NCBI GenBank assembly: GCA_964416765.1
Contig: CAYQEU010000001.1
Location: forward strand, 340,480 to 404,479
Direction of reading: 5' to 3'
Length of the DNA: 64,000 nt
From: an uncultured Candidatus Saccharibacteria bacterium
Lineage (GTDB): Bacteria > Patescibacteriota > Doudnabacteria > UBA920
Shown here piece by piece: positions 869 through 60,216 of this stretch. Made by a program: the position numbers and the translations under genes. How positions within the stretch are numbered: the first letter of the stretch is position 1; each line of letters begins with the position of its first letter. The notes under the pieces were generated by a model that was given only the letters and a program-made list of their open reading frames with translations, searched no databases and was not told the DNA's origin.

Positions 869-2248
869 CTATTTCTTTTTGGCGACTTGACCCTCTGATG
901 TGTCTCGAACCTCGTAGCCCTGTTCTTCAATTTGCTGACGGAGGCTGTCTGATAAAGCAAAATCTTTGGTCTTTTTTGCTTCCTCGCGGCGGTCTAGCAA
1001 TTCCTGGATGTTCTGTGGGATATCAATGGCTTCGCTTTTTTCCAGGCTAAGTCCGAATACTCGATCGAAATCTTTTAGCGTTGTAATTTTATCTTCTAAC
1101 TCTATTTGTTGGTCTTTCATCAGTTCCCAAGCTAAAGCCACCGCTTTCGGAGCGTTCAAGTCGTCATTAATGAATTCGGTAAACTTTTCTTTGTAAGCTG
1201 GGACAATGTTGCCGCTCCTAGCATTTTGGGATACAAAGTCATTTAATTTAAGGCGTGCCTGGCGGGCGGCCTGCAGGCTTTCCCAGGTAAAGTTAAGCTG
1301 GGTGCGCCAGTTGGCGGTAAGGCACAAATAACGGAAATCCAATGGAGAGAACCCTTTTTCAATTAAAGTATCTAAGGTGTATGCGTTCCCTTCGCTTTTG
1401 CCCATGCGACCTTCGTCTATGAGCAGGAACTCACCATGCATCCAGCGGTTGGCTAGTGGCAGTTCGTAAGCCGCTTCGCTTTGGGCAATTTCGTTGGTGT
1501 GGTGGGTGCCAATGTGGTCCACTCCGCCGGTATGGATATCAAACGGCTGGCCGAGGATCTTTCGTGATATTGCGGAACATTCAATGTGCCAGCCAGGAAA
1601 ACCATCACCCCAGGGTGATGGCCAGCGCAGGACATGGTCTTTGTATCGCCCGGCCAGGAAAAACCAAAGCGCGAAGTCGGCGGGGTTCTTCTTTCCGGTG
1701 TCTACCACCACCTCGTCGCGGGCGCCCGTCTTCTTGTCTTCCAGTTTTTGCCCCGAAAGTTTTCCGTAATCGGAGAGTTTGCTGGTATCAAAGTAAATGG
1801 CGAATTCGTCGCGGTAAGTGAAGCCCTTTTCTTCCAGGAGCTTTATAATCTCAATTTGCTCAGGTACGGTTTCGGTGGCGCGCAACACCCGGTGCGCCCG
1901 CTCAATATTGAGCTGGTCGGTGTCCTCAAAAAACTTTTGTTCATAAAATTGGGCGACTTCCAAGGGATGTTTGCCTTCGCGGGCCGCGCCTACCTCCATT
2001 TTGTCCTCGCCTTCGTCACCGTCGCCAACCAAATGGCCCACGTCGGTAATGTTCATGCCGTGGACTACTTCAAAGCCGTCATATTCCAAAACGCGGCGAA
2101 GCAAGTCGCTAAAAATGTAGGTTCGCAAATTTCCGATATGGGCAAAGTGGTATACCGTGGGTCCGCAGGTGTAAATCCTTACTTTGTTCCGGTGGATGGT
2201 GAGGAGTTCAGAAACCGAGCGGGTAAGGGTGTCGTAGAGTTTAGGCAT
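869..2248 (-). CDS. cysS: Cysteinyl-tRNA synthetase
   Basis: Class I aaRS with HIGH motif (HFAHIGN) and KMSKS variant (KMGKSEGN); N-terminus MPKLYDTLTRS.. typical of CysRS. Confidence 0.93.
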   Translation of the reverse strand: MPKLYDTLTRSVSELLTIHRNKVRIYTCGPTVYHFAHIGNLRTYIFSDLLRRVLEYDGFEVVHGMNITDVGHLVGDGDEGEDKMEVGAAREGKHPLEVAQFYEQKFFEDTDQLNIERAHRVLRATETVPEQIEIIKLLEEKGFTYRDEFAIYFDTSKLSDYGKLSGQKLEDKKTGARDEVVVDTGKKNPADFALWFFLAGRYKDHVLRWPSPWGDGFPGWHIECSAISRKILGQPFDIHTGGVDHIGTHHTNEIAQSEAAYELPLANRWMHGEFLLIDEGRMGKSEGNAYTLDTLIEKGFSPLDFRYLCLTANWRTQLNFTWESLQAARQARLKLNDFVSQNARSGNIVPAYKEKFTEFINDDLNAPKAVALAWELMKDQQIELEDKITTLKDFDRVFGLSLEKSEAIDIPQNIQELLDRREEAKKTKDFALSDSLRQQIEEQGYEVRDTSEGQVAKKK

Positions 2249-4104: not shown

Positions 4105-4689
4105 ATGAACTTAGACGCAATTTTTTTAATCGGCCCGCAAGGTTCGGGCAAGGGAACCCAGGGTAAACTCCTAGCCGAAAAGCATGGGATGTTTTATTGG
4201 GAGATGGGAAAGATTTTCCGCGATATCACCCAGGAAGACACCCCACTCGGACGGGAGCTGAAGGATTTGGTCAACCGGGGCGTACTGCTAAGCGACGAAA
4301 TCATTATGCAAGTGTTTAAAGACCGCTTTGCCAGCATTCCCAAAGACCAAGCTGTAATTTTTGATGGGGTACCACGACGGGTGGGGCAGGCTCAATTTGT
4401 ACTGGACGCGCTGCTGGAAAACGGGCGCACCAAATTTGTCACTCTCTTTGTGGATTTGCCCCGTGAAGAATCTCTCAACCGGCTCCTGCTCCGCGCGGAA
4501 AAGGAAGGGCGCAAAGACGACACCCGGGACGCGATTGAATACCGTCTACAACAGTATGAACAAGATACTCTCCCAGTTTTGGATTTCCTGAAATTGCACA
4601 GCGACTTCATCGAAATAGACGGTCGACCCCCGATTGAGGAGGTAACGGACGAGGTAGATCAAGCGTTAAAAAAGTATGTCCAATCATAA
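4105..4689 (+). CDS. adk: Adenylate kinase
   Basis: P-loop GPQGSGKGTQ at the N-terminus, NMP-binding and LID-like segments; ends 14 nt into the next gene. Confidence 0.85.
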   Translation: MNLDAIFLIGPQGSGKGTQGKLLAEKHGMFYWEMGKIFRDITQEDTPLGRELKDLVNRGVLLSDEIIMQVFKDRFASIPKDQAVIFDGVPRRVGQAQFVLDALLENGRTKFVTLFVDLPREESLNRLLLRAEKEGRKDDTRDAIEYRLQQYEQDTLPVLDFLKLHSDFIEIDGRPPIEEVTDEVDQALKKYVQS

Positions 4690-5314
4690 AAAGACTCCTC
4701 CATTTACCGTAGTATTGTTGGGAGATCCTGCGGCCGGTAAGGCCACCCAGGCGGAGTATCTTTCGGAGCAGTATAACCTGTACGATTTCGATATGGGTAA
4801 AGAGCTCGCGAAATTGCGCCGTCGCGATAAAGAGATAAACCACAATCTCAAAGCCAACAATGATAAAGGTAAAATGACCCCTACAAAGATCGCGCGGGGT
4901 ATCCTGAAAGAAACTATCGAAAAGGTACCGATGAGCAAGGGGATTCTATTTGATGGCCACCCGAAGATGCTGGGTGAAGCAAAAATGGCCAGCCGTCTCC
5001 TCAAGGCACATAAGCGCTTGCCGCCAGTGGTTATCTATATCTCCATACCAATTGAGGAAACAGTCAAGCGCATGGCTGATCGCGTAGGATATTTCGCGGG
5101 AAAGTATGGCAAGCGTGCTGATGATAATAACCAAGCCCTCAAGAACCGGGTTAAATATTACCGCACCAACATTGCCGACGTGGTTAACTTTTTTTCTTCA
5201 GTGTATGAATTCCATAAGATCAGCGGAATGGGCAGCAGGCTGCAGGTTAGGCAGGAGATCAACCGAATCATAAAAAACTATTTAAAAAAAATTGAGAATG
5301 GGGAAGTACGTTAA
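4676..5314 (+). CDS. Adenylate kinase family paralog (nucleoside monophosphate kinase)
   Basis: GDPAAGKATQ P-loop and FDGHPK motif; second tandem member of the Adk family immediately upstream of map. Confidence 0.7.
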   Translation: MSNHKKTPPFTVVLLGDPAAGKATQAEYLSEQYNLYDFDMGKELAKLRRRDKEINHNLKANNDKGKMTPTKIARGILKETIEKVPMSKGILFDGHPKMLGEAKMASRLLKAHKRLPPVVIYISIPIEETVKRMADRVGYFAGKYGKRADDNNQALKNRVKYYRTNIADVVNFFSSVYEFHKISGMGSRLQVRQEINRIIKNYLKKIENGEVR

Positions 5315-21378: not shown

Positions 21379-21454
21379 GCCGTTGTAGCTCAGTAGGTAG
21401 AGCATCTCCATGGTAAGGAGAAGGTCTCCGGTTCGATCCCGGACAACGGCTCCA
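21379..21454 (+). tRNA. tRNA-Thr (anticodon GGT)
   Basis: Cloverleaf read by hand: acceptor GCCGTTG/CAACGGC, D arm GCTCAGTAGGTAGAGC, anticodon loop AUGGUAA, T loop TTCGATC, encoded CCA. Confidence 0.9.
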
Positions 21455-21459
21455 GAGAA

Positions 21460-21488
21460 AGGCACCTAGGCGATTGGGTGCCTTTTTC
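21460..21488 (+). terminator. Terminator after tRNA-Thr (AGGCACC-TAGGCGATT-GGGTGCCT then TTTTC)
   Basis: GC-rich stem and T-run directly 3' of the tRNA. Confidence 0.7.
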
Positions 21489-21523
21489 TTGTCCGCAAAA
21501 ATATTTGGGTTTATTATAAACAT

Positions 21524-22573
21524 ATGTCTAAATATTCACCGGAATTCGGCTTGGGATTATCCAAGGATTATAGCCCTGACGCTTCGCCTGCCGACGGAAA
21601 CCGCTGGGAGCAGTTTTTCAAGCGCAATAAAGAGGCAATACAAAAATCACTGGTTAAGATTGTAGGGGCTAGTGTATTTTTGAGCGCGAGTATTATTGAA
21701 CCATATAAAGCTGTCGCCCAACAAATGTCTTTCACCAAAGAGAGCGTCGCGAGCAGAAGTATAGAGAATTCCGGCCGGAAGCAGGAAAGACAAATTCAGC
21801 GGGAAATATTGACAGACGAAAGAGAACGAGTTTTTGTGGAATTGGATGAGGAGTTTTATGAGCTAAATGAAGGCAAGGCCCGTAACGCCTTTATTGACTA
21901 CGAAGACCTGTATGATTTTATGGAAGCCCATAGTGCCAGGCATGCTTATATAGCGCACACCCATCCAAAGGAGACCTACATCGATCCATTAAAAAAACTT
22001 TCGTATTCCCAAGAGAGGATTGATGGCATCCTAAGCGCTCATGAACTTCCTCCAGAGCCGCCGAGTATGATGGATTTTAGCGCCCAGTATGGAATACAAA
22101 ACCACTTTAAACCCAAAGGTATGGATTTAAGGGGAAAGGTAATTGACCCGGAAGGAAATTGGGTATTTACGGTTGCGGACAATAACCATTTGTTTGAAAG
22201 ATTGCAAGAGGTCGGGTCAGTAATGCAACAATCACTGGTAAAAAACCTAACTAAAGGAGAGTGGAATACTATTAGAAAGGTAATGGAAACCGGAACAGTG
22301 GACCCGCGGGAATTAAGCAGCTATCTGCAATCACTGCCCAAAGAAGAAGACCGATTGGGGGAGAAGAAGAAATTGGGCCAAAAACTAGATAATTTAGAAA
22401 AAGAGGTTATGCAAGGCTTTAACCAGGAAATGGATGTATATGAAAAAGTTGAGAAATTAGCTTTGGCCGTGATGACAAGTCCATTAGGACCAGAAAGAGA
22501 AAAGGCGATTGCTGATTACGTCGGCTATTGTTCCCGTAACGGGATAAACGTCTCTTATAATAAAGCGAATTAA
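21524..22573 (+). CDS. Hypothetical protein, 349 aa, no recognisable domain
   Basis: Long uninterrupted ORF between two tRNA loci; sequence shows no motif I can assign. Confidence 0.55.
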   Translation: MSKYSPEFGLGLSKDYSPDASPADGNRWEQFFKRNKEAIQKSLVKIVGASVFLSASIIEPYKAVAQQMSFTKESVASRSIENSGRKQERQIQREILTDERERVFVELDEEFYELNEGKARNAFIDYEDLYDFMEAHSARHAYIAHTHPKETYIDPLKKLSYSQERIDGILSAHELPPEPPSMMDFSAQYGIQNHFKPKGMDLRGKVIDPEGNWVFTVADNNHLFERLQEVGSVMQQSLVKNLTKGEWNTIRKVMETGTVDPRELSSYLQSLPKEEDRLGEKKKLGQKLDNLEKEVMQGFNQEMDVYEKVEKLALAVMTSPLGPEREKAIADYVGYCSRNGINVSYNKAN

Positions 22574-22637
22574 GGGCTAGGCTTGCTTTTTTTGCCAAAA
22601 TCCAGTAAAATTATCTCTGTACTTTGCTAATTTTTAA

Positions 22638-22723
22638 GGGTAGGTACCCAAGTGGTCAACGGGGGCTGACTGTAAATCAGCTGGCTTTAGCCTTCAGAGG
22701 TTCGAATCCTCTCCTGCCCACCA
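22638..22723 (+). tRNA. tRNA-Tyr (anticodon GTA), long variable arm
   Basis: Acceptor GGGTAGG/CCTGCCC (one G-U pair), anticodon loop CUGUAAA, 14-nt variable arm, T loop TTCGAAT, encoded CCA. Confidence 0.88.
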
Positions 22724-22733
22724 GATAATAATT

Positions 22734-22809
22734 GCCGGCTTAGCTCATCTGGTAGAGCAACGGTTTTGTAAACCGTAGGTGGTCGGTTCGAGCCCGACAG
22801 CCGGCTCCA
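22734..22809 (+). tRNA. tRNA-Thr (anticodon TGT)
   Basis: Acceptor GCCGGCT/AGCCGGC, D arm TAGCTCATCTGGTAGAGC, anticodon loop UUUGUAA, T loop TTCGAGC, encoded CCA. Confidence 0.9.
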
Positions 22810-22826
22810 TAATTGAAAGGAAATGT

Positions 22827-22982
22827 ATGTCACAGGACAACCGGATTGATATGGAATGCACCGAATGCAAGCGCATTACCCATCAAACCAACAAGAATAA
22901 AAAGAATACCCCGAAGCGCTTAGAACTGTCCAAGTTCTGCAAGTTCTGCAAGAAGAAGACTCTTCACCGGGAAACCAAGTAA
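22827..22982 (+). CDS. rpmG: 50S ribosomal protein L33
   Basis: [41 protein letters not shown] matches the L33 zinc-ribbon family; AAAGGAAA RBS; the track ORF is extended upstream across the tRNA and that extension is rejected. Confidence 0.88.
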
Positions 22983-23008
22983 ACCTCGCGCAAACCGCGA
23001 GGTTTGCT
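22981..23008 (+). terminator. Hairpin after rpmG (AACCTCGCG-CAAAC-CGCGAGGTT then TTGCTAT)
   Basis: 9-bp stem; weak T-run, may be a partial terminator before tRNA-Trp. Confidence 0.5.
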
Positions 23009-23034
23009 ATAATATAGGCTGTTTGGGAATAGAA

Positions 23035-23108
23035 TTGATGCCGTGGGGGCGTCGTATAATGGTAGTACAGCGGTCTCCAAAACCGCTTGCGTGGGTTCGA
23101 TTCCTACC
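23035..23108 (+). tRNA. tRNA-Trp (anticodon CCA)
   Basis: Near-identical architecture to E. coli tRNA-Trp (GGGGCG..GGTCTCCAAAACC..TTCGATTCC..CGCCCCTGCCA); anticodon loop CUCCAAA. Confidence 0.9.
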
Positions 23109-23126
23109 GCCCCTGCCAGGACTTTA

Positions 23127-23151
23127 TAAAAGTGCGAAAATCGCCGTGAAG
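23127..23151 (+). terminator. Terminator after tRNA-Trp (AAAATCGCC-GTGAA-GGCGGTTTT then TTG)
   Basis: Stem plus T6. Confidence 0.7.
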
Positions 23152-23178
23152 GCGGTTTTTTGTTATCATTTACACACT

Positions 23179-23802
23179 ATGGCAAACAGAAAGCTTGTTA
23201 TTTGGGATTTTGACGGTCCAATTGTTGATTCGAGAGCCCTGGCTCTAGAGCTAACTCAGGTTGGATATCATGACGTCGATGAACATGTTCACCGCAATCT
23301 TTTTAATGGAAATGTTTATGTTGAACTTTCTAAATTGAGAAAGAGAGAATTGAGCGAAGAGAAGCAAGCTGAATTTTTAGAAAAGAGCTACTGGCCAAGG
23401 AAATTAGAAATTGTCCCTGTCCCTGGAATAACCGAAGTTGTAAAGGAGCTTGCACGGGATTTTGATATGACTATTAATTCATCAAGCAGTACAGCCGTAA
23501 TTCTTAATTATTTAGTCAAAAATAATTTGTCTGCCTATTTCTCAAGAATTTACGGCAACGAAATCAAAAGTAAAGAAGAAAAGTTTGAAATGATTCTCCA
23601 AGACTTTAACTTGCTGGCCCAGGACTGTGTTTTGATAACTGATACCCTGGGCGATGTCCTTGAAGCAAAAACTTTAGCAATTCCTTCCATAGTAGTGCTA
23701 TGGGGTTATCAATTTAAGGAGCACTTCGACTCAGTACAAAATGAAGTAGTATTTGTTGAGGATGCGGGCCAGCTTATTAGTGCGGTTCGAGGCCACTTTT
23801 AA
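23179..23802 (+). CDS. HAD-superfamily hydrolase (phosphatase-like)
   Basis: Motif I WDFDGPIVDS near the N-terminus; start set at ATG 23179 downstream of tRNA-Trp, because the longer track ORF overlaps the tRNA. Confidence 0.7.
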   Translation: MANRKLVIWDFDGPIVDSRALALELTQVGYHDVDEHVHRNLFNGNVYVELSKLRKRELSEEKQAEFLEKSYWPRKLEIVPVPGITEVVKELARDFDMTINSSSSTAVILNYLVKNNLSAYFSRIYGNEIKSKEEKFEMILQDFNLLAQDCVLITDTLGDVLEAKTLAIPSIVVLWGYQFKEHFDSVQNEVVFVEDAGQLISAVRGHF

Positions 23803-30619: not shown

Positions 30620-31269
30620 AGTACCACACGGTAATTTTTGATATGGATGGCGTGGTAATAGACAGTGCAATGCTTTGGAATAATTCCACCACCCAGCTCT
30701 TGGCCAGCCACGGCATTGAATATAATTTCGCAGAGGTCAGGCCCAAGGTTGCCGGTACCAGCCTAAAGGACAGTACCGAGATAATTCGGGAACATTATAA
30801 ACTGGCTATCGCGCCCGAGGACTTTCTTAACCAGAGAAAAAGTTTTATTGAGAAAGAGTTTGAAAATAGTATGGAATTTATCCCCGGGTTTTTAAACTTC
30901 CACCAACAGCTATTGGGGCTGGGGATAAAAACAGGGATTGCCACTTCCGCGTATGATGATTTGGTCAATTTTGCCATCCGAAAGCTGGGACTAATGGAAA
31001 TTTTCTCGGGCCATCTCTACAAAGCCTCGGACGTGGGGGATAAGTCAAAGCCTGACCCTGCGGTATATCTGCACGCCGCCCAAATGCTGCAAAGCCCCCC
31101 GGAACAATGCATCGTGGTGGAAGATGCCCCCAAAGGGATAGATGCCGCCCATAATGCCGGTATGAAGTGCATTGGCATTACCACCACCTTCCCCAGAGAA
31201 CTCATAGCCCACGCGGACTGGGTAGTGGACCGCTATGAGGAAGTGCAACTTCCCCAGGTACTTAATTAG
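30616..31269 (+). CDS. HAD-IA hydrolase (beta-phosphoglucomutase-like)
   Basis: Motif I VIFDMDGVVIDS, motif III K....D and C-terminal EDAPKGIDAAHNAGM. Confidence 0.8.
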   Translation: MKYHTVIFDMDGVVIDSAMLWNNSTTQLLASHGIEYNFAEVRPKVAGTSLKDSTEIIREHYKLAIAPEDFLNQRKSFIEKEFENSMEFIPGFLNFHQQLLGLGIKTGIATSAYDDLVNFAIRKLGLMEIFSGHLYKASDVGDKSKPDPAVYLHAAQMLQSPPEQCIVVEDAPKGIDAAHNAGMKCIGITTTFPRELIAHADWVVDRYEEVQLPQVLN

Positions 31270-31301
31270 AAACTTTTAGTACGACTTGATATAATAATTT
31301 T

Positions 31302-31727
31302 ATGAAAAACTTTTTTAGACAATATAGTCTTTTATTGGCCTGGGCTACTTCATTAGTGGCTACCTTGGGGAGTCTCTACTATAGTAATGTTTTAAACTTA
31401 CCGCCCTGCGTGTTGTGCTGGTACCAGCGCATTGCTATTTATCCGCTGGTTATTTTCCTCGCCGTAGCGATCCAACAAAAGAACAAAAGGATTCATTTGT
31501 ATGTTTTGCCGCTGACCCTGATTGGCATGGCCATTTCCATTTACCATAACCTGTTGTACTACAATATAATCCCGGAAAGTCTCGCACCGTGTGTTAGTGG
31601 GGTATCATGCACTACACGGTTATTGGAATTGTTTGGTTTCTTGACCATACCAACCCAGGCGCTAATTGGTTTTGTTTTAATTAACTTGTTCTTAATTATT
31701 CATGGGAGACTAAATAAAGATGTCTAA
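31302..31727 (+). CDS. dsbB: Disulfide bond formation protein B (BdbC-type)
   Basis: Four TM helices with PCVLCWYQR and second Cys pair (APCVSGVSC). Confidence 0.8.
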   Translation: MKNFFRQYSLLLAWATSLVATLGSLYYSNVLNLPPCVLCWYQRIAIYPLVIFLAVAIQQKNKRIHLYVLPLTLIGMAISIYHNLLYYNIIPESLAPCVSGVSCTTRLLELFGFLTIPTQALIGFVLINLFLIIHGRLNKDV

Positions 31728-32373
31728 AGAAACGAAGATTATGATCGCGGTCGCGGTTCTGATACTGGCGGCCGGAATTATACTGTTTATAAAAGCCGGG
31801 CCCGGCAGCCAGCCACAGGCCGGGCAAGCGGTTGATGCTAACTCGCTTGTACGGGATACCAGCCACATGACCGGTAAAAAGGAAGCTAAAGTGACATTGG
31901 TGGAATTTGGGGATTTCCAGTGTCCCGCTTGTGCTCTGGCCGAACCGAAAGTTGAAGAAATCCTGAACGCATATAAGGATGACCCAGATTTTAACTTCGT
32001 GTTCCGCAATTTCCCATTAAGCCAGCACCAGAATGCGCAGATTGCGGCAGAAGCAGCGGAAGCCGCCGGCGCGCAAAATAAATATTGGGAAATGCATAAT
32101 AAGCTATATGCAACCCAGCCGGAATGGGAAACCAGCCCTAATCCATTGGATCTTTACGTAAAGTACGCGACGGAGCTCGGGCTCAATGTGGACCAATTTA
32201 AGTCTGAAGTTAGCAGCTCAAAATACAAAGACATAATCAGCGCTGATATGTCTGACGGGAACAACCTGGCCGTAAATGCCACCCCCACTTTTTACCTCAA
32301 CGGTGTTAAGCTTGATTCCATGCCAGACTTAAATTCCTTTAAGTCCAAAGTAGAAGAGCTTAAGCAAAAATAA
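31720..32373 (+). CDS. Membrane-anchored DsbA/BdbD-like thiol:disulfide oxidoreductase
   Basis: Thioredoxin fold with CPAC active site (FGDFQCPACA); start overlaps the dsbB stop. Confidence 0.82.
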   Translation: MSKETKIMIAVAVLILAAGIILFIKAGPGSQPQAGQAVDANSLVRDTSHMTGKKEAKVTLVEFGDFQCPACALAEPKVEEILNAYKDDPDFNFVFRNFPLSQHQNAQIAAEAAEAAGAQNKYWEMHNKLYATQPEWETSPNPLDLYVKYATELGLNVDQFKSEVSSSKYKDIISADMSDGNNLAVNATPTFYLNGVKLDSMPDLNSFKSKVEELKQK

Positions 32374-32933
32374 TGCTTCCATCGGGTCACATCGCGGCCG
32401 GTTACCTGGTGGCCGAAGCAATTTTACGGATAGCAAAACCAGCTTTGAGTCACAGCCAAAACGTTCACCTGCTCTGGTGGGGAGCGTTTTTTGGTTTCAC
32501 CCCGGATCTCGATATGTTCTACGCCTTCTGGCGGGCGAAGGGTTTTACTTTGCCACGCAAAGAAGTTAATCACCGGTTTTACCTGACACACCGGCCCATG
32601 GTTTGGCTGGCTGCCAGCTTATTAATTTGGCTATTTGCCACTTCGCCTTTCTGGAAAACATTCGCCTTGGTGATGTGGCTTGGGTCTTGGAGTCATTTTA
32701 TACTCGATTCCTTGCGGGTCGGGGTAATGTGGTTGTGGCCGTTTTCCAATAAGTTTTACGCGTTGTACAAGCCAGGGGAGAGGGAAGGGACTTCACGCAA
32801 AAGTTTTTACGATTATTGGATGTGGTTTTTAAATTTTTACACTACCGACCACCCGGTAACTTTCTACCTCGAAATATTGGTTCTTGTAGCGGCGGCGGCA
32901 GTATGGGGCTTGTCCCAGAAAGGAATATTGTGA
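32373..32933 (+). CDS. Membrane-bound metal-dependent hydrolase (YdjM/DUF457-like)
   Basis: His-rich polytopic membrane protein; TAATG overlap with the upstream gene. Confidence 0.55.
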   Translation: MLPSGHIAAGYLVAEAILRIAKPALSHSQNVHLLWWGAFFGFTPDLDMFYAFWRAKGFTLPRKEVNHRFYLTHRPMVWLAASLLIWLFATSPFWKTFALVMWLGSWSHFILDSLRVGVMWLWPFSNKFYALYKPGEREGTSRKSFYDYWMWFLNFYTTDHPVTFYLEILVLVAAAAVWGLSQKGIL

Positions 32934-33643
32934 AATACCCAAAGCTTGTAGTTCTTCCGCTCGCGGCTTTGCTCGCCGCGGCCGTGTATTGCTATTTAAC
33001 TTCGCAGCTAGGCCATACCACCCTTTTATTAGTGAGGCTTGCTGACTGGTATGCTTTGCTCGCGCTGGCTTTCCTGTATGTCACTTTATTGGGCACCCCA
33101 TTGTGGTCGGCGCTCCCAAATTTGCCAGGGAAAGACGAATTCAACCATTTACGCGGCGCTTTAGGACTTTCCAGCTTGCTGTTTGCCTTGCTCCACGGCT
33201 CAATTGCCTTTTTTGGGCTGTTACAAGGGTTTGATGGGTTAAGTTTCCTCCCCGCAGGCTATCGTCAGGTGGTGGGTTTGGGGTTTGCCGCACTTACAAT
33301 ATTATTGCTCTGCGCGGGTCCGTCCTTCCCGTTTATCCGTGACCGGCTCCAGGGAAGTTTCCAAGCGCTTAAATGGTTTTTATACACCACGGGAATTATC
33401 ATCATCGTGCACGCTACTTTGATAGGCTCGCATTTTGTGGAATTGGGCCGAACGGTTCCTCAGCTAGTTTATCTTTTTTGCTTCTTGTTATTATTCCTGG
33501 AGACCGTTCGCATCAAAAATGGCCTGCTCGCTAGAATAGGGAACTATGCTTACGCGGTTTGGCTGGCGCTGTTAGTGATTTTGCTTTGGGGATATTATTT
33601 TTTCATATTTGCTAATGTCCATTCCTACCATGTCCACGGCTAG
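32903..33643 (+). CDS. Ferric-reductase-like transmembrane heme-binding protein (MsrQ/YedZ-like)
   Basis: Six TM helices with spaced His residues (LLHGSIAFFG, IVHATLIGSHF); start could alternatively be the GTG at 32930 overlapping the upstream stop. Confidence 0.6.
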   Translation: MGLVPERNIVKYPKLVVLPLAALLAAAVYCYLTSQLGHTTLLLVRLADWYALLALAFLYVTLLGTPLWSALPNLPGKDEFNHLRGALGLSSLLFALLHGSIAFFGLLQGFDGLSFLPAGYRQVVGLGFAALTILLLCAGPSFPFIRDRLQGSFQALKWFLYTTGIIIIVHATLIGSHFVELGRTVPQLVYLFCFLLLFLETVRIKNGLLARIGNYAYAVWLALLVILLWGYYFFIFANVHSYHVHG

Positions 33644-34163
33644 ATTGTTCGGAATTACTTTGTTGGCGGGCTTTTTCTTCCTGAGCTGTCCTTCACCTTC
33701 CCTCGCGCACACCCTAAAAACAGATGGGAACATCGGCGGTCTCCTGCACGTTGACCCTACCGATGAACCGTTTGCCAACTCGGCGGCGACAATATACTTT
33801 GAACTCACCGACAAGACTGCCCGAATCTCCCCGGCAAACTGTGAATGCGAGATGACAGTGGAACGGGAGGGGAATCAGCTATCCACTCAGGCGCTCTACA
33901 CCCAGGACTCCAGCTCGCTGGAAACAAAAATTACATATACTTTTCCCGAACCCGGGGTTTACCAACTCAAGTTTTTAGGAAGGGTCGGCCCGGAGCAGTT
34001 TAATCTCTCTTTTGATGTGAGGGTGCAGCCCGCGGCGCAGTTAACTAATAATGGTGAAAGTGAAAACCATACCGGACATTACATAATATTCGGCGCGGGC
34101 GGTCTGGTACTGATGGGATATCTTCTTTATAGTTATAAACGAAAGCCATCTGCAGCAAGATAA
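33630..34163 (+). CDS. Secreted protein with C-terminal TM anchor; mature N-terminus predicted to be His
   Basis: Signal peptide ending SPSLA then HTLKTDGN; C-terminal hydrophobic anchor GHYIIFGAGGLVLMGYLLY; start ATG 33630 (the track begins at an upstream TTG). Confidence 0.55.
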   Translation: MSTARLFGITLLAGFFFLSCPSPSLAHTLKTDGNIGGLLHVDPTDEPFANSAATIYFELTDKTARISPANCECEMTVEREGNQLSTQALYTQDSSSLETKITYTFPEPGVYQLKFLGRVGPEQFNLSFDVRVQPAAQLTNNGESENHTGHYIIFGAGGLVLMGYLLYSYKRKPSAAR

Positions 34164-34765
34164 TGGAACTAATGAAAAGCATTAATGCATCGATTATGAA
34201 AAAATTCGTCTTTATCACATTCCTAGCCATCGCGTTGTTAATCCCTCTCACAGCTTCCGCCCATGTCGTGGTAAAACCGGATAGCGTCGGGGTAGCCAAG
34301 TACCAGACGTTTACCGTGAGCGTACCCAATGAAAAAGAAGTTCCAACCATAGCCCTAAAGCTTGTTGTACCCGATTCTGTGGACTCTGTTACTCCCACAG
34401 TAAAACCAGGATGGAAGATTGAAGTCAGTGGAAAGGAAGTGACCTGGACTGGCGGCTCCATTCCCCCTGGCGAGCGTGATGACTTTAGTTTTAGTACCAA
34501 AGCCCCGGCCCAACCAACTGAGCTTGCCTGGAAGGCATATCAAACATACGCGGATGGAACGATAGTACCATGGGACCAAAATCCAGCAGATGGCAATAGC
34601 TCAGAAAAAGCCACTCCCTACTCAATCACTAAAGTGGTAAACGACCTGACCCCCGGGCCGACAAACCAGGCTACAGACAAAACTTCCCGGAATATCTCTT
34701 ACTTGGCTTTAGCTTTGAGTCTTATCGCTTTTGTTACGGCAGTCAGAGCAAAAGCCCAAAAATAG
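34163..34765 (+). CDS. YcnI-like (DUF1775) copper-binding protein with C-terminal TM anchor
   Basis: Collinear with B. subtilis YcnI: signal peptide then AHVVVKPD..Y.TFTVSVPNEKEVPT, AWKAYQTYADGTIVPW, PYSIT, C-terminal anchor. Confidence 0.8.
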   Translation: MELMKSINASIMKKFVFITFLAIALLIPLTASAHVVVKPDSVGVAKYQTFTVSVPNEKEVPTIALKLVVPDSVDSVTPTVKPGWKIEVSGKEVTWTGGSIPPGERDDFSFSTKAPAQPTELAWKAYQTYADGTIVPWDQNPADGNSSEKATPYSITKVVNDLTPGPTNQATDKTSRNISYLALALSLIAFVTAVRAKAQK

Positions 34766-34772
34766 GCCAGTA

Positions 34773-34801
34773 TTGACACTTTGCCCATTTTGTGCTATAC
34801 T
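34773..34801 (+). promoter_or_regulatory. Promoter TTGACA(34773-34778)-17-TATACT(34796-34801) driving RNase P RNA
   Basis: Consensus -35 and near-consensus -10 with 17-bp spacer immediately upstream of the rnpB conserved core. Confidence 0.65.
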
Positions 34802-34807
34802 AAGGTG

Positions 34808-35140
34808 CAATTTAAGGAAACCGAATAATCGCCCCTACAAGCAATTGCAGGGGAGGAAAGTCCGAACACTCATTTGATGCCTTCTATAGGGTCATCAAAA
34901 AGGTAGTGGGTAACGCCCGCCGGGAGTAATCCTAGAGATGCGAACAGTGACGCCGCTACTGGAAACAGTACGGCCCCAGGCCTTTGGCCCGGGTGAACTT
35001 TGGCGGCAACGCCAAGGGTGAAACGGCTAAATTCTTACCTGAGTGCAAAGCCAAATTTGGTAGGCTGCACGAGCTTTTCAGCAATGAAAAGACTAGATAG
35101 ATGATTATTTAGAAACAGAATTCGGCTTACGAGTTTGCTT
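34808..35140 (+). ncRNA. rnpB: RNase P RNA (bacterial type)
   Basis: Universally conserved P4 strands GGAGGAAAGTCCG (34850-34862) and ACAGAAUUCGGCUUA (35116-35130), P3 hairpin CCCCT..AGGGG, AAGGGTGAAACGG module; ends are approximate. Confidence 0.75.
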
Positions 35141-35149
35141 GAATGGCAT

Positions 35150-55850: not shown

Positions 55851-56936
55851 ATGGGGATCTTAGACACAATCATCACAACCAACCAACAAGAGTCCTTACA
55901 GCAATTTGAATTGGGCTTAATTGTCAGCAAAATTATTGAACCGTTACGCGAACGCGAGCAAGCGATTTTAAAACAGCGTTACGGACTTCATGGACACAAG
56001 ATCGAAACCCTCAAAACAGTAGGGGAAGAACAGGGTTTAACACGCGAACGTGTTCGTCAGATTGAAAAAGAACTTTTAAAGAACTTAAAGCGCGGTGTCC
56101 AGGAGCTGGAAGCTTTTGTAACTGCCCGTGACCTATTACTTACCACCATTTCTGAACACGGCGGTATTATGGCTGAGCACCGTTTAATGAAGCACCTTGG
56201 CGCTGAAGACGAAACCGACGTAAACGCCTTGCGTTTCCTGTTAAATTTAATAGTAGAACTTGAACTCCACAACGAAGACAAGCATATCCGCCATTCCTGG
56301 TCTAAACTTGGCTTTGACAAGAAGTTTTTGACCGAATTTATAGTGGAAACCAAGAAAATCCTGTCTGCCCACGGCAAGCCGGTCAGCGAAAAGGAATTTT
56401 TGGATAAGTTTATGGAATCCGAATTCTACAAGCAGAACAAGGAAGCTTTGCCTGAGCACGTCATGATGAACTACATCCACACGGCGACCGGCGTCCATAA
56501 GAACTCCTTTGGCGAGTTTGGGCTCCAGGGCTGGAGCGAAATCAAGCCCAAGGACGTTGGTGACAAGGCTTATTTGGTCATGAAGCACCACGGCAAACCC
56601 GAACATTACTCTGTTATTACCGATTTGATCAACAAGCACGCTTTGGACAAGCGCACCGCTTACAAGGAAACCGTGCACAACAAGCTTATTAAGGACAGCC
56701 GTTTCGTTTTGGTGGGCCGCGGCATTTACGCTTTAACCGAATGGGGTTACAAGCCTGGTGTGGTGTCTGATATACTGACAGAGGTGATGAAAGAAGCCCA
56801 GCACCCCATGAGCCGTGATGAAATTATTGATGAAGTCATGAAGCGCCGCATGGTAAAGAAAAATACCATCCTCGTCGGCCTTTCTAACCGAAAATTATTT
56901 AAAAAAGTAGGCAAGAACTTATACGATTTGGCCTAA
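55851..56936 (+). CDS. Sigma-70 region-4-like HTH domain protein with large C-terminal domain of unknown function
   Basis: N-terminal about 90 aa resemble sigma-70 region 4 (EREQAILKQRYGL..KTVGEEQGLTRERVRQIEKELLKNL); no region 2, so not a complete sigma factor. Confidence 0.6.
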   Translation: MGILDTIITTNQQESLQQFELGLIVSKIIEPLREREQAILKQRYGLHGHKIETLKTVGEEQGLTRERVRQIEKELLKNLKRGVQELEAFVTARDLLLTTISEHGGIMAEHRLMKHLGAEDETDVNALRFLLNLIVELELHNEDKHIRHSWSKLGFDKKFLTEFIVETKKILSAHGKPVSEKEFLDKFMESEFYKQNKEALPEHVMMNYIHTATGVHKNSFGEFGLQGWSEIKPKDVGDKAYLVMKHHGKPEHYSVITDLINKHALDKRTAYKETVHNKLIKDSRFVLVGRGIYALTEWGYKPGVVSDILTEVMKEAQHPMSRDEIIDEVMKRRMVKKNTILVGLSNRKLFKKVGKNLYDLA

Positions 56937-58329: not shown

Positions 58330-60216
58330 ATGCCAGAAAACCAAGACGAAATTAATTTTTTTGCCAAGACTAACTACCGGAATCGGGAAGTGCCTTTTGG
58401 CATAAAAGCCGACGACCGCCGCCGCCACATGTACATTATCGGAAAGACGGGTATGGGCAAAACGACCATGATGGAAAACATGGTTATTCAGGATATCCGG
58501 AATGGCCATGGCGTTTGTTTTATCGACCCGCACGGGGACTCCGTAGCCAAAATCCTAGATTATATCCCAAGCAGTCGTGTTAACGACGTCGTCTATTTCA
58601 ACCCGGCGGACATTGAACACCCTATCGCGTTTAATATTCTGGAAACCGTGGACAGTAAGTATAAACATTTGGTTGCTTCCGGTCTTATGGGCGTGTTCAC
58701 GAAAATCTGGGCTAACCTCTGGTCTGCCCGAATGGAATACATTTTGAACAACACCATCTTGGCGCTTCTGGACAGCCCGGGTAACACCATGATGGGCATC
58801 GCGCGCATGTATATCGACAAAAAGTACCGCAAGCGCATTGTCGATAATATCAAAGACCCTATGGTTAAAGCCTTTTGGGTTGATGAGTTCGCGCAGTACA
58901 GCGAAAAGTACCGTACCGAAGCTATTGCGCCGATTCAAAACAAAGTTGGGCAGTTCTTGTCTTCCGGAATTATCCGCAACATTGTAGGCCAGCCGCGCTC
59001 CACTATAGATTTGCGTTCCATTATGGACAACCAAAAAATTCTTTTGATGGACTTGTCCAAAGGCAAAGTGGGAGAAGATAATTCGGCTTTGCTGGGCGCT
59101 ATGGTTATTACCAAACTGCAACTGGCCGCTTTGTCACGCGTGGATATTCCGGAACATGACCGAAAAGACTTTTTCCTGTACGTGGATGAGTTCCAAAACT
59201 TTGTCACTGAAAGCTTCGCCACTATTTTGAGCGAGGCGCGCAAATACCGCTTAAATCTTACCATTGGCCACCAATATATAGGTCAGCTTGCTCCCGACCG
59301 CAACAACACTAAAGTGCGGGACGCAGTGTTCGGCAACGTCGGGACTATGGTTTGCTTTCGGGTCGGTGCGGCTGACGCGGAATTTTTGGAAACTGAATTT
59401 GACCCAACCTTCACTCCTAATGACATAGTAAACCTGCCCAAATACAATATTATTTTGCGGCTCATGATTAATGGCGTTGCTTCCGACCCGTTTTCCGCCG
59501 TTACCATGCCAGTTAGGGAAGATTGGGCTACGGGTAACGGTGAAAAAGTTATTAAAGTATCCCGGGAGCGATACGCCAACCCGGTTATTGAGGTTGAAGA
59601 AAAGATCATGCGCTGGATGGGAGCCGAAACCCACCAGGAAATCGGCTTAATAGTCGGACGTGATGAAGATGAAAATCCGGCGGAACAGATTGCGGAGGCT
59701 GTGCAGGAAAAGACAGCAGAAACAGTAAAGAAAGTCTTGGCGGAAGCAATGGGGGAACAATCACCCGTACCTGCAACGGAAGCTGTAAATACATCCACAG
59801 AGACTCCCCAAACCATACCAGAACCCCCGGCCGAAATCGAGCACGTCCCCGAACCTGACGTTGTAAAAGAGCCTGAGATAGTGGTTGAGGCTCCTAAACA
59901 CGAGATAAAGCCACAGACCCAGCAGCGCCACAGGCCGGAACTTCAAAATAGAAGCGGCAATCAAAGCAAGGGCCAAAAATTCTCTCAACAGCGAAAAAAG
60001 AACAAGCCCAACAAAAACAAGCAAAACGCCCGCGACGTTAACCCCATATGGAAAACCGTGGAATCTTTAAATGATGAGCGCGCGGCCGCTGACCTGCAAA
60101 AGGCCCAGCGAGTCCACGAACCCGCCGCCGTACCGGAAAGTTCCCACCCCGACAACAACAGCCAAAGCGACTCCGGCGCAAAGATAATCCGCCCCGGAAT
60201 AGTTCACAAATTCTAA
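58330..60216 (+). CDS. VirD4/TraG/TraD-like (type IV coupling protein family) P-loop ATPase lacking the N-terminal TM, with Gln/Lys/Asn-rich C-terminal tail
   Basis: Walker A IIGKTGMGKTT, Walker B FLYVDEFQNF, TraG-family motif LTIGHQYIGQL and FGNVGTMVCFRVG; last about 120 aa low complexity. Confidence 0.7.
   Translation: MPENQDEINFFAKTNYRNREVPFGIKADDRRRHMYIIGKTGMGKTTMMENMVIQDIRNGHGVCFIDPHGDSVAKILDYIPSSRVNDVVYFNPADIEHPIAFNILETVDSKYKHLVASGLMGVFTKIWANLWSARMEYILNNTILALLDSPGNTMMGIARMYIDKKYRKRIVDNIKDPMVKAFWVDEFAQYSEKYRTEAIAPIQNKVGQFLSSGIIRNIVGQPRSTIDLRSIMDNQKILLMDLSKGKVGEDNSALLGAMVITKLQLAALSRVDIPEHDRKDFFLYVDEFQNFVTESFATILSEARKYRLNLTIGHQYIGQLAPDRNNTKVRDAVFGNVGTMVCFRVGAADAEFLETEFDPTFTPNDIVNLPKYNIILRLMINGVASDPFSAVTMPVREDWATGNGEKVIKVSRERYANPVIEVEEKIMRWMGAETHQEIGLIVGRDEDENPAEQIAEAVQEKTAETVKKVLAEAMGEQSPVPATEAVNTSTETPQTIPEPPAEIEHVPEPDVVKEPEIVVEAPKHEIKPQTQQRHRPELQNRSGNQSKGQKFSQQRKKNKPNKNKQNARDVNPIWKTVESLNDERAAADLQKAQRVHEPAAVPESSHPDNNSQSDSGAKIIRPGIVHKF

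Follow-up and report, generated by a model that had tools for sequence, protein, structure and literature searches.

A recurrent module of a ferric-reductase-like heme membrane protein, a His-first protein family and YcnI, predicted to handle extracytoplasmic copper, within a six-gene cluster of a Candidatus Saccharibacteria bacterium

Genes and signals of the cluster

The window analyzed here is a stretch of 64,000 nucleotides (nt) from an uncultured Candidatus Saccharibacteria bacterium (assembly GCA_964416765.1, contig CAYQEU010000001.1, positions 340,480 to 404,479). It contains six plus-strand open reading frames (ORFs), named g1 to g6, that occupy positions 31302-34765 and encode a DsbB- and a DsbA-type protein, a YdjM-family membrane protein, a ferric-reductase-like heme membrane protein (g4), a secreted protein predicted to mature with an N-terminal histidine (g5), and a YcnI protein (g6). 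The cluster is composite, because the order reductase-g5-YcnI recurs in distant loci, while the association with the Dsb and YdjM genes is mostly limited to one lineage; its conserved core, reductase-g5(-YcnI), is accompanied in this lineage by the Dsb pair and YdjM. From their sequences, g4-g6 could form a membrane-tethered relay that captures and reduces Cu(II), a reading whose chances of being right or wrong we judge to be about equal. An earlier note on this DNA had described a six-gene cluster at these positions, and all six ORFs were confirmed. They are listed here together with the upstream signal.

31267..31295, plus strand: promoter-like site TAGAAA-17-TATAAT with TG, found by consensus scan only, ending 7 nt 5' of the g1 ATG
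31302..31727, plus strand: g1, BdbC-type DsbB, 141 residues (PF02600 and NCBIfam PRK03113)
31720..32373, plus strand: g2, membrane-anchored DsbA/BdbD-like thiol oxidase, 217 residues (Thioredoxin_4 and DSBA profiles)
32373..32933, plus strand: g3, YdjM/YbcI (DUF457) polytopic membrane protein, 186 residues (PF04307)
32930..33643, plus strand: g4, ferric-reductase-domain membrane protein, 237 residues; start GTG 32930, alternative ATG 32903
33630..34163, plus strand: g5, His-first protein of a new family, 177 residues; start ATG 33630, alternatives 33609 and 33615
34163..34765, plus strand: g6, YcnI (DUF1775, PF07987), predicted Cu(II)-binding protein, 200 residues, or 189 from ATG 34196

The junctions were read from the sequence. 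The first two genes overlap by 8 nt (ATGTCTAA), g2 and g3 meet in TAATG, and g3 and g4 share GTGA, provided that g4 starts at GTG 32930; the g4 protein is called with 237 residues in a JGI relative and with 246 residues (ATG 32903) in Logan contigs. The overlap between g4 and g5 amounts to 14-35 nt, set by the choice of the g5 start (33609, 33615 or 33630), and g5 and g6 meet in TAATG only if g6 starts at 34163. The g6 start at ATG 34196 is equally possible, because the YcnI genes of relatives encode 189 residues and follow g5 after a 30-nt gap.

Such tight packing had been taken in the earlier note as a mark of co-translation. The overlapping and abutting junctions are indeed present, but overlapping stop and start codons do not alone show functional coupling, because junctions of this kind are common throughout the window, which is ~92% coding and in which 21 of the 47 same-strand neighbour pairs (45%) overlap or abut. 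The sole intergenic space before the cluster is a 32-nt gap after the upstream HAD gene, and transcription of the unit could begin at the promoter-like site at 31267..31295. The stretch up to the g1 ATG (31267-31302) contains no recognizable Shine-Dalgarno sequence after the TATAAT element, and the unit from g1 may be transcribed as a leaderless mRNA. A terminator search within 31302-34765 found none that was convincing, and the six genes probably constitute one co-oriented, co-transcribed unit.

The density of the window also suits the explanation that the six genes are mere neighbours in a gene-dense genome, with no common function. The unrelated genes upstream, for a cyclase and the HAD protein, overlap alike, and the association of DsbB, DsbA and YdjM is confined to a generally syntenic lineage. 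We nevertheless consider mere adjacency very unlikely, as the reductase-g5-YcnI order is kept in dozens of loci, at 25-47% identity and in otherwise unrelated neighbourhoods; the explanation is tenable for g1-g3 only and is refuted for g4-g6.

Conservation of gene order

Gene content and gene order, like the family memberships and the residue conservation given below, are direct observations. All six genes, along with the entire neighbourhood, are retained in relatives whose g5 is 74-95% identical. In relatives with ~50% g4 identity (contigs of 730 and 785 kb), the series DsbB-DsbA-YdjM-reductase-g5 is kept and YcnI is missing, with rnpB located directly after g5 (locus L092). The arrangement in L092 shows that the YcnI gene has been gained or lost exactly between g5 and rnpB. 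The equivalent gene of the window lies directly after g6 and has a near-consensus promoter-like sequence of its own, TTGACA-17-TATACT, at 34773-34801.

34813-35145, plus strand: bacterial class A RNase P RNA gene (121.8 bits)

The set of distant relatives, with 25-47% g5 identity, comprises six loci from metagenome-assembled genomes (MAGs) of GTDB and 75 metagenome loci, which were scanned with narrower g5 alignments, the 45-sequence alignment being too diverse. The reductase is found directly upstream of g5 in 31 of the 46 distant loci with at least 900 nt of upstream sequence, and YcnI directly downstream in 36 of the 51 with at least 700 nt of downstream sequence; in locus L007 the end of the reductase gene and the start of g5 share 16 nt. 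Gene order across distant genomes therefore bears out the coupling of the heme membrane protein to both His-first proteins that the earlier note had proposed. Clustering of the neighbours within 5 kb of the distant modules revealed no recurrent transporter, and no further recurrent partner at all besides a PKD-domain protein after YcnI.

Dsb genes adjoin the module in just two distant loci (L022 and L046), in differing arrangements, and a phmmer search found no g3 homologue in the distant loci. DsbB, DsbA and YdjM thus accompany the module mainly in the syntenic lineage, and the proposal that all six genes act as one functional system found weak support at best. YdjM or PAP2 as a conserved part of the module was likewise rejected: PAP2 occurs upstream in one or two loci, and YdjM in this lineage only.

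The distant MAGs are labelled Saccharimonadales, Curtissbacteria or "uncultured Gammaproteobacteria". The last title belongs to four module-bearing GTDB MAGs (L009-L012), and the other module MAGs are labelled as members of the Candidate Phyla Radiation (CPR); the gammaproteobacterial labels may be unreliable. Contigs of small-genome (CPR-type) bacteria commonly carry the module, an observation that softens the statement, made for this window alone, that such genes are unexpected in a minimal genome.

The g5 family

Profile scans of g5 matched no Pfam or NCBIfam family, and none of 45 family members gave an above-threshold Pfam match, including matches to CopC, DUF1775 and PCuAC. The CopC profile (PF04234) matched neither g5 at E<=1 nor any of the 45 members at E<=0.1, and the family profile yielded no meaningful match among PDB sequences. 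A word-indexed search for relatives returned six, and a profile search of 1.84 billion cluster representatives (50% identity) returned 1,607 at E<=1e-3 and 1,124 at E<=1e-10. The protein belongs to a large family without a Pfam model, with ~1,600 representatives at 50% identity.

The signal peptide of g5 extends to Ala26, with the junction SLA, and the predicted mature protein begins with His27 (His+1; codon 33708-33710). Conservation across 239 non-redundant family members supports this His-first maturation, which had been predicted in the earlier note: Ala-1 is present in 233 of the 239 and His+1 in all 236 sequences without a gap at that position, and the signal-peptide residues upstream vary freely. 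The conserved residues also include His40 (codon 33747-33749, mature position 14; 237/238), Pro43 (238/238), Asp45 (mature position 19; 237/238) and the two cysteines of a C71xC73 motif at 33840-33848 (Cys71 236/237, Cys73 235/237), and a hydrophobic C-terminal anchor is present in 93% of the members. A lipoprotein assignment (LSC) was rejected, the Cys being not conserved and the preceding residues a misfit to the lipobox.

The AlphaFold2 (AF2) model of g5, calculated from the 45-sequence alignment with a predicted local distance difference test score (pLDDT) of 91, consists of a signal helix, an eight-stranded β-sandwich (residues 28-133) and a membrane helix (residues 148-171; 34071-34142). 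Strands 28-32 and 35-42 form a hairpin. The best fold match in the PDB, with E 2e-4 and TM 0.68 on the target, is CrdA from Helicobacter pylori, which is a copper protein of the CopC family (PMC9182242); the other matches are generic Ig-like domains. An approach of His27 to His40 across the hairpin would be chemically reasonable, because designed β-hairpin peptides can form a copper histidine brace (PMC12462749).

Comparisons with hhalign led to the rejection of homology between g5 and the YtkA-like reductase extension of relatives described below (probability 15%), and between g5 and YcnI, for which the match covered just the signal peptide and the first strand (36 columns). A general homology to the PKD-domain protein was also rejected, the 100% match being an artefact of a fused ORF (L057) in the alignment. 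A subfamily of longer g5 relatives (P0008, P0026, P0049, P0127; ~30 of the best 150 members; 250-290 residues) has an extra region after the membrane helix, with a conserved H-x-C-C motif and a terminal K-S-P-P; this region may be a further metal-binding tail.

The YcnI protein

The last protein, g6, scores 76.9 bits (E 2.6e-21) against PF07987, well over the cut-off of 25, and matches the crystal structure of Bacillus subtilis YcnI (PDB code 7me6) with an E value of 2.6e-17. The Cu(II) site of YcnI is a mono-histidine brace formed by the mature N-terminal His, Glu50 and Trp137 (B. subtilis numbering; PMC8424229). In g6, His34 (codon 34262-34264), Glu57 (34331-34333) and Trp137 (34571-34573) align with His27 (mature residue 1), Glu50 and Trp137 of YcnI, respectively. 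These results support the identification of this protein as YcnI: DUF1775 scores above the cut-off, and besides the N-terminal His, both other Cu(II) ligands known from the crystal structure, a Glu and a Trp, are retained.

The predicted signal peptide ends in TASA, and cleavage between ASA and H fits the -3/-1 rule. A hydrophobic C-terminal segment in the translation is the predicted membrane tether. Among 49 YcnI homologues that adjoin g5 relatives, Ala-1, His+1 and the Glu are present in 49/49 each, and the Trp in 45/45, a pattern that argues for His-first maturation of g6 as well.

The heme membrane protein

The score of g4 against Ferric_reduct (PF01794) is 24.2 bits, below the gathering cut-off of 28, and its assignment needs above-threshold relatives for that reason. 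Homologues from distant loci, found with g4 at E 1e-20 to 1e-36, reach 34.3 and 37.2 bits, and relatives 47-53% identical to g4 carry a precomputed PF01794 annotation and the JGI name "YedYZ heme-binding membrane subunit". In the PDB, a 17-sequence g4 profile matched no proteins but STEAP2, STEAP1 and STEAP4 (E 8.6e-5 to 5.5e-4); His89 and His161 of g4 align with H316 and H409 of STEAP2 and the STEAP1 equivalents. The description of g4 as a ferric-reductase-like heme protein holds in part: g4 itself misses the PF01794 cut-off, but its relatives pass it and the heme histidines align with those of STEAP.

The candidate heme-b ligands are His89 (33194-33196), located on the third helix, and His161 (33410-33412), on the fifth core helix. 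Both are highly conserved in the family (34/34 and 35/36, respectively), as is, in 30 of 36 sequences, His168. The third helix has only one conserved His, which suggests that g4 holds one heme. The one heme B of STEAP1 is bound by H175 and H268 at the extracellular leaflet, and both Fe(III) and Cu(II) are reduced by STEAP2-4 (PMC7363144). An AF2 prediction of low confidence, from a 6-sequence alignment, has seven helices; given these and a positively charged N-terminus inside, the C-terminal tail NVHSYHVHG would lie outside the cell. An outer loop, LxGFxGLxFL (residues 98-107), is nearly invariant.

Additional domains and genes in relatives

Of the 22 loci that carry the reductase and include 1,800 nt or more of sequence upstream, 16 encode a longer form of ~530 residues.

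L012:2171-3745, L009:5360-6952, L010:3795-5393, L013:1220-2803 and others: ~530-residue reductase homologues

These proteins have a 270-residue C-terminal extension that is predicted to face outwards, in which His73, His86-x-His88-Pro, His200, Met203 and His213-x-His215-Pro are invariant and which also has an EQQ motif. YtkA (PF13115) is the top or only family in five of nine extensions, with 16-22 bits, below the cut-off of 25.9. The YtkA domain is known from the B. subtilis copper chaperone CtaK and from the C-terminus of YcnJ (PMC13344008). The g4 protein of the window has no YtkA-like extension, only its short His-rich tail.

Flavoproteins occur beside the module in two relatives. In L061 a Pyr_redox_2 flavoprotein (1406-2632) takes the place of the reductase directly upstream of g5-YcnI, and in L012 a divergent gene upstream of the reductase encodes an NADPH-dependent FMN reductase (FMN_red; 1533-2135, minus strand). 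Both are candidate electron donors. Together, the flavoprotein neighbours and the outward extensions point to electron supply by a cytoplasmic flavoprotein and metal handling at the outer face.

The metal handled there might be another than copper, for example in an assimilatory ferric reductase whose His-first partners bind Fe, Ni or Zn. A role as assimilatory iron reductases has been suggested for MsrQ-like clusters with PF01794 (PMC8238504), Fe(III) as well as Cu(II) is reduced by STEAP proteins (PMC7363144), and proteins with an N-terminal His can prefer Ni or other metals (PMC12537917). However, the Cu(II) ligand triad is unchanged in all YcnI sequences of the module, the sole Pfam signal in the reductase extension, albeit sub-threshold, is that of the copper-chaperone domain YtkA, and no iron transporter (VIT1, Ftr or Feo) is recurrent nearby. 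A metal other than copper is accordingly quite unlikely in our estimation.

Many relatives have a fourth module gene after YcnI, absent from the window, which encodes a protein of ~290 residues with two PKD domains and a C-terminal anchor. This protein, too, is predicted to mature with an N-terminal His (cleavage between SA and H-x-[IV]-GQPPFFKING).

L012:5002-5859, L040:7447-8418, L008:1329-2222, L043:9088-9948 and ~17 other loci: PKD His-first gene

In L057 one ORF (577-2028) fuses a g5-type domain to the PKD His-first protein; it may be a genuine fusion or may result from misassembly or a frameshift. This fusion, together with the PKD-domain neighbours and the polysaccharide deacetylases found nearby in some loci and in the window, would suit a role for g5 as a copper enzyme, such as one resembling a lytic polysaccharide monooxygenase (LPMO) acting on cell-wall or host-surface polymers, with g4 as its reductant (cf. 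MsrQ-MsrP) and YcnI as its copper loader. The tight coupling of the reductase to g5, including gene overlap in distant loci, is in line with such a role, and an N-terminal His with a second invariant His in a β-sandwich is the LPMO/His-brace pattern (PMC10952591). The g5 domain is, however, very small (~105 residues) and has an invariant CxC that is foreign to LPMOs; neither its sequence nor its fold matches an LPMO catalytic domain, and the LPMO entries in the fold search were low-ranked and generically Ig-like. An enzyme of this kind therefore has a low probability.

The Dsb pair and YdjM

The three genes at the start of the cluster have clear family assignments. The DsbB-type protein g1 passes both PF02600 (51.6 bits; cut-off 22.1) and PRK03113 (131.8 bits; cut-off 124), and its translation contains the cysteine pairs C36VLC39 (31407-31418) and C96/C102, which agree with the two extracytoplasmic pairs expected of DsbB, a CxxC in loop 1 and another pair in loop 2. 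Its partner g2 scores above the cut-offs for Thioredoxin_4 (PF13462; 106.7 bits, E 1.9e-30) and DSBA (PF01323; 62.1 bits, E 8.1e-17), with the active-site motif C68PAC71 at 31921-31932. PF04307 covers residues 1-182 of the 186 in g3 with 55.9 bits (cut-off 29; E 4.9e-15). The CxC of g5 is the only extracytoplasmic Cys pair among g3-g6, and the Dsb pair may conceivably control its redox state.

The Dsb genes bear on a further explanation, in which the module is an electron sink or a minimal extracytoplasmic oxidase. Electrons from disulfide formation (DsbA to DsbB to quinone), or from NAD(P)H via flavin reductases, would pass through the g4 heme to copper in g5 and YcnI, and in the PKD protein of relatives, and from there to O2 or peroxide. 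In an organism without a respiratory chain, this would provide an outlet for electrons or a defence against oxygen. DsbB and DsbA adjoin the module in three separate contexts (this lineage, L022 and L046), although Dsb genes are missing from most module loci. Proteins of the MsrQ type take electrons from quinol or from flavin reductases and deliver them to partners outside the cytoplasm (PMC8238504), and His-brace copper sites can reduce O2 (PMC10952591), but YcnI has been characterized as a Cu(II) chaperone and not as an oxidase (PMC8424229). The lack of a recurrent transporter beside the module is consistent with a sink, and up to three His-first proteins plus HxHP domains suit a redox chain over a single chaperone. 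On balance this explanation is unlikely, if somewhat less so than another metal or an LPMO-like enzyme. The same holds for its broader form, in which the reductase, g5 and YcnI, with the PKD protein where present, would be an undescribed copper redox chain of CPR-type bacteria, serving as a minimal terminal oxidase or electron sink that might, for example, reoxidize the DsbB/quinone pool or pass reducing power to O2, with g5 as a new His-brace family.

A possible copper relay

The favoured reading, Cu(II) capture and reduction by g4-g6, distinguishes two layers in the cluster, a lineage-specific one that would comprise the BdbC/BdbD-type disulfide oxidase pair and the YdjM-family membrane protein, and a conserved extracytoplasmic module made up of g4, g5 and g6. 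In this proposal, g4 would coordinate a single b-type heme by His89 and His161, close to the outer leaflet, and pass electrons outward from a cytoplasmic flavin reductase or from quinol. Cu(II) would be bound by the membrane-tethered g6 through its mature N-terminal His, Glu57 and Trp137, and by the membrane-tethered g5 through mature His27 with His40 and Asp45. The captured Cu(II) would then be reduced to Cu(I) by the g4 heme, and the Cu(I) accepted by what is likely to be the C71xC73 motif of g5, or by the HxHP domains in relatives, before its transfer to an importer or cuproprotein encoded elsewhere. B. subtilis YcnI exchanges Cu(II) with a His-first CopC domain (PMC13344008). In this scheme we infer the identity of the metal in g5, the geometry of His27 and His40, the direction in which electrons move and the destination of the copper.

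Several points weigh against the relay. The 64-kb window encodes no cuproenzyme, copper oxidase, CopA, CopZ or CopD, and neighbour clustering found no importer (CopD or CopA) or cuproenzyme that is recurrent near the module. Pathways for heme and quinone synthesis are often missing in bacteria of this type. YcnI is dispensable, since it is absent from the relatives with ~50% g4 identity, and some g5 homologues stand alone amid unrelated genes. The facing positions of His27 and His40 across the g5 hairpin, which we would expect from the model, were derived from the register of a DSSP string and not from coordinates. The order of the strands probably places the CxC motif and the His site at opposite ends of the sandwich, and the motif could be simply a structural disulfide. 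Besides its sub-threshold PF01794 score, g4 has an AF2 model with a pLDDT of only 58, whose top Foldseek match, STEAP1, is non-significant at E 0.23.

The earlier note had suggested copper acquisition or cuproprotein maturation for the cluster as a whole. Copper handling is the best reading for the last three genes, but it is weak for g1-g3. For the g5 family, with its ~1,600 representatives and no Pfam model, the His-first/His/Asp/CxC signature and the fixed partners predict a new cuproprotein. The module suggests copper handling at the surface of bacteria with very small genomes, usually thought to be without respiratory chains and most metal-trafficking machinery, by a STEAP-like reductase strategy otherwise known from eukaryotes. 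It also links YcnI to a membrane partner wholly unlike the CopC-CopD importer of B. subtilis, which bears on the role of YcnI in genomes without YcnJ. A literature search found no paper combining DUF1775 with "ferric reductase", nor "N-terminal histidine" with MsrQ, and copper goes unmentioned in a survey of MsrQ-like clusters for extracytosolic electron transfer (PMC8238504).

Other features of the window

The remainder of the window is of housekeeping character and encodes tRNA synthetases, DnaE, FtsW, RF1, S2, EF-Ts, SecA, SecD and SecF, as well as MraY, Mur enzymes and glycosyltransferases. The following were observed in addition.

4105-4689 and 4676-5314, plus strand: two adjacent, overlapping adenylate kinase (ADK) genes
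21379-23115: cluster of four tRNA genes
23023-23802, plus strand: longest ORF, overlapping the tRNA at 23045-23115 at its 5' end
55851-56936, plus strand: protein with sigma-70 region 4 and HARE-HTH, amid housekeeping genes
58330-60216, plus strand: ATPase resembling TrwB, the coupling protein of type IV secretion systems, amid housekeeping genes

Because of the tRNA overlapping its 5' end, the real start of the ORF at 23023-23802, if it is a gene, lies further downstream.

Comparison with known systems

The first two proteins correspond to the BdbC-BdbD pair of Gram-positive bacteria, in that both pass the family thresholds and carry catalytic CxxC motifs. They differ from it in sharing a unit with a heme reductase and copper-type proteins, an arrangement that has not been described.

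The reductase is most similar to the single-heme branch of PF01794, which is represented by STEAP and MsrQ (YedZ), with one conserved His each on the third and fifth helices and with a predicted position of the g4 heme at the outer leaflet. Extracellular Cu(II) and Fe(III) are reduced by STEAP2-4, and MsrQ feeds a dedicated periplasmic partner, roles analogous to the one proposed for g4. In contrast to STEAP, g4 has no fused NADPH/FAD domain, and unlike MsrQ it has no MsrP partner but His-first proteins of copper type. An extra seventh helix is predicted to place the C-terminus of g4 outside, and g4 itself falls below the Pfam cut-off.

The "signal-strapped" His-first metalloproteins (DUF4198, DUF6702, Ang-1/Ang-2; PMC12537917) share with g5 an invariant His after the signal peptide, an Ig-like β-sandwich, attachment to a membrane component, and copper binding by a mono- or bis-His brace, which for g5 is a prediction. 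The Ang domains, however, are found in Pseudomonadota and Actinomycetota as fusions to HupE/UreJ permeases, whereas g5 is a separate gene beside a heme reductase, with other conserved residues.

With CopC, PcoC and CrdA, g5 has in common a small Greek-key β-sandwich and a predicted mature N-terminal His, and separate sites for Cu(II) and Cu(I), as in CopC, are possible in the g5 model. The sequences have no detectable relationship and the ligand positions differ; g5 contains a CxC instead of a Met-rich loop and has a C-terminal membrane anchor.

A comparison of the whole module is provided by YcnJ-YcnI of B. subtilis, which combines a CopC-CopD-YtkA membrane protein with the DUF1775 chaperone. 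Both systems include a membrane-tethered YcnI with the His/Glu/Trp site and a second extracytoplasmic β-sandwich protein with a predicted mature N-terminal His, and in both every part is membrane-anchored and jointly encoded. Outward domains resembling YtkA are present in most of the reductase relatives, though not in the g4 protein of the window. The new module differs in its membrane component, which is a heme protein with a ferric-reductase domain and not CopD, in the lack of a YcnK-type regulator, and in g5, which is not CopC by sequence and has its second His at mature position 14, not near the C-terminus. Domain by domain, CopC thus finds its parallel in g5, YtkA in the extension of the relatives, YcnI in YcnI, and CopD in the heme reductase.

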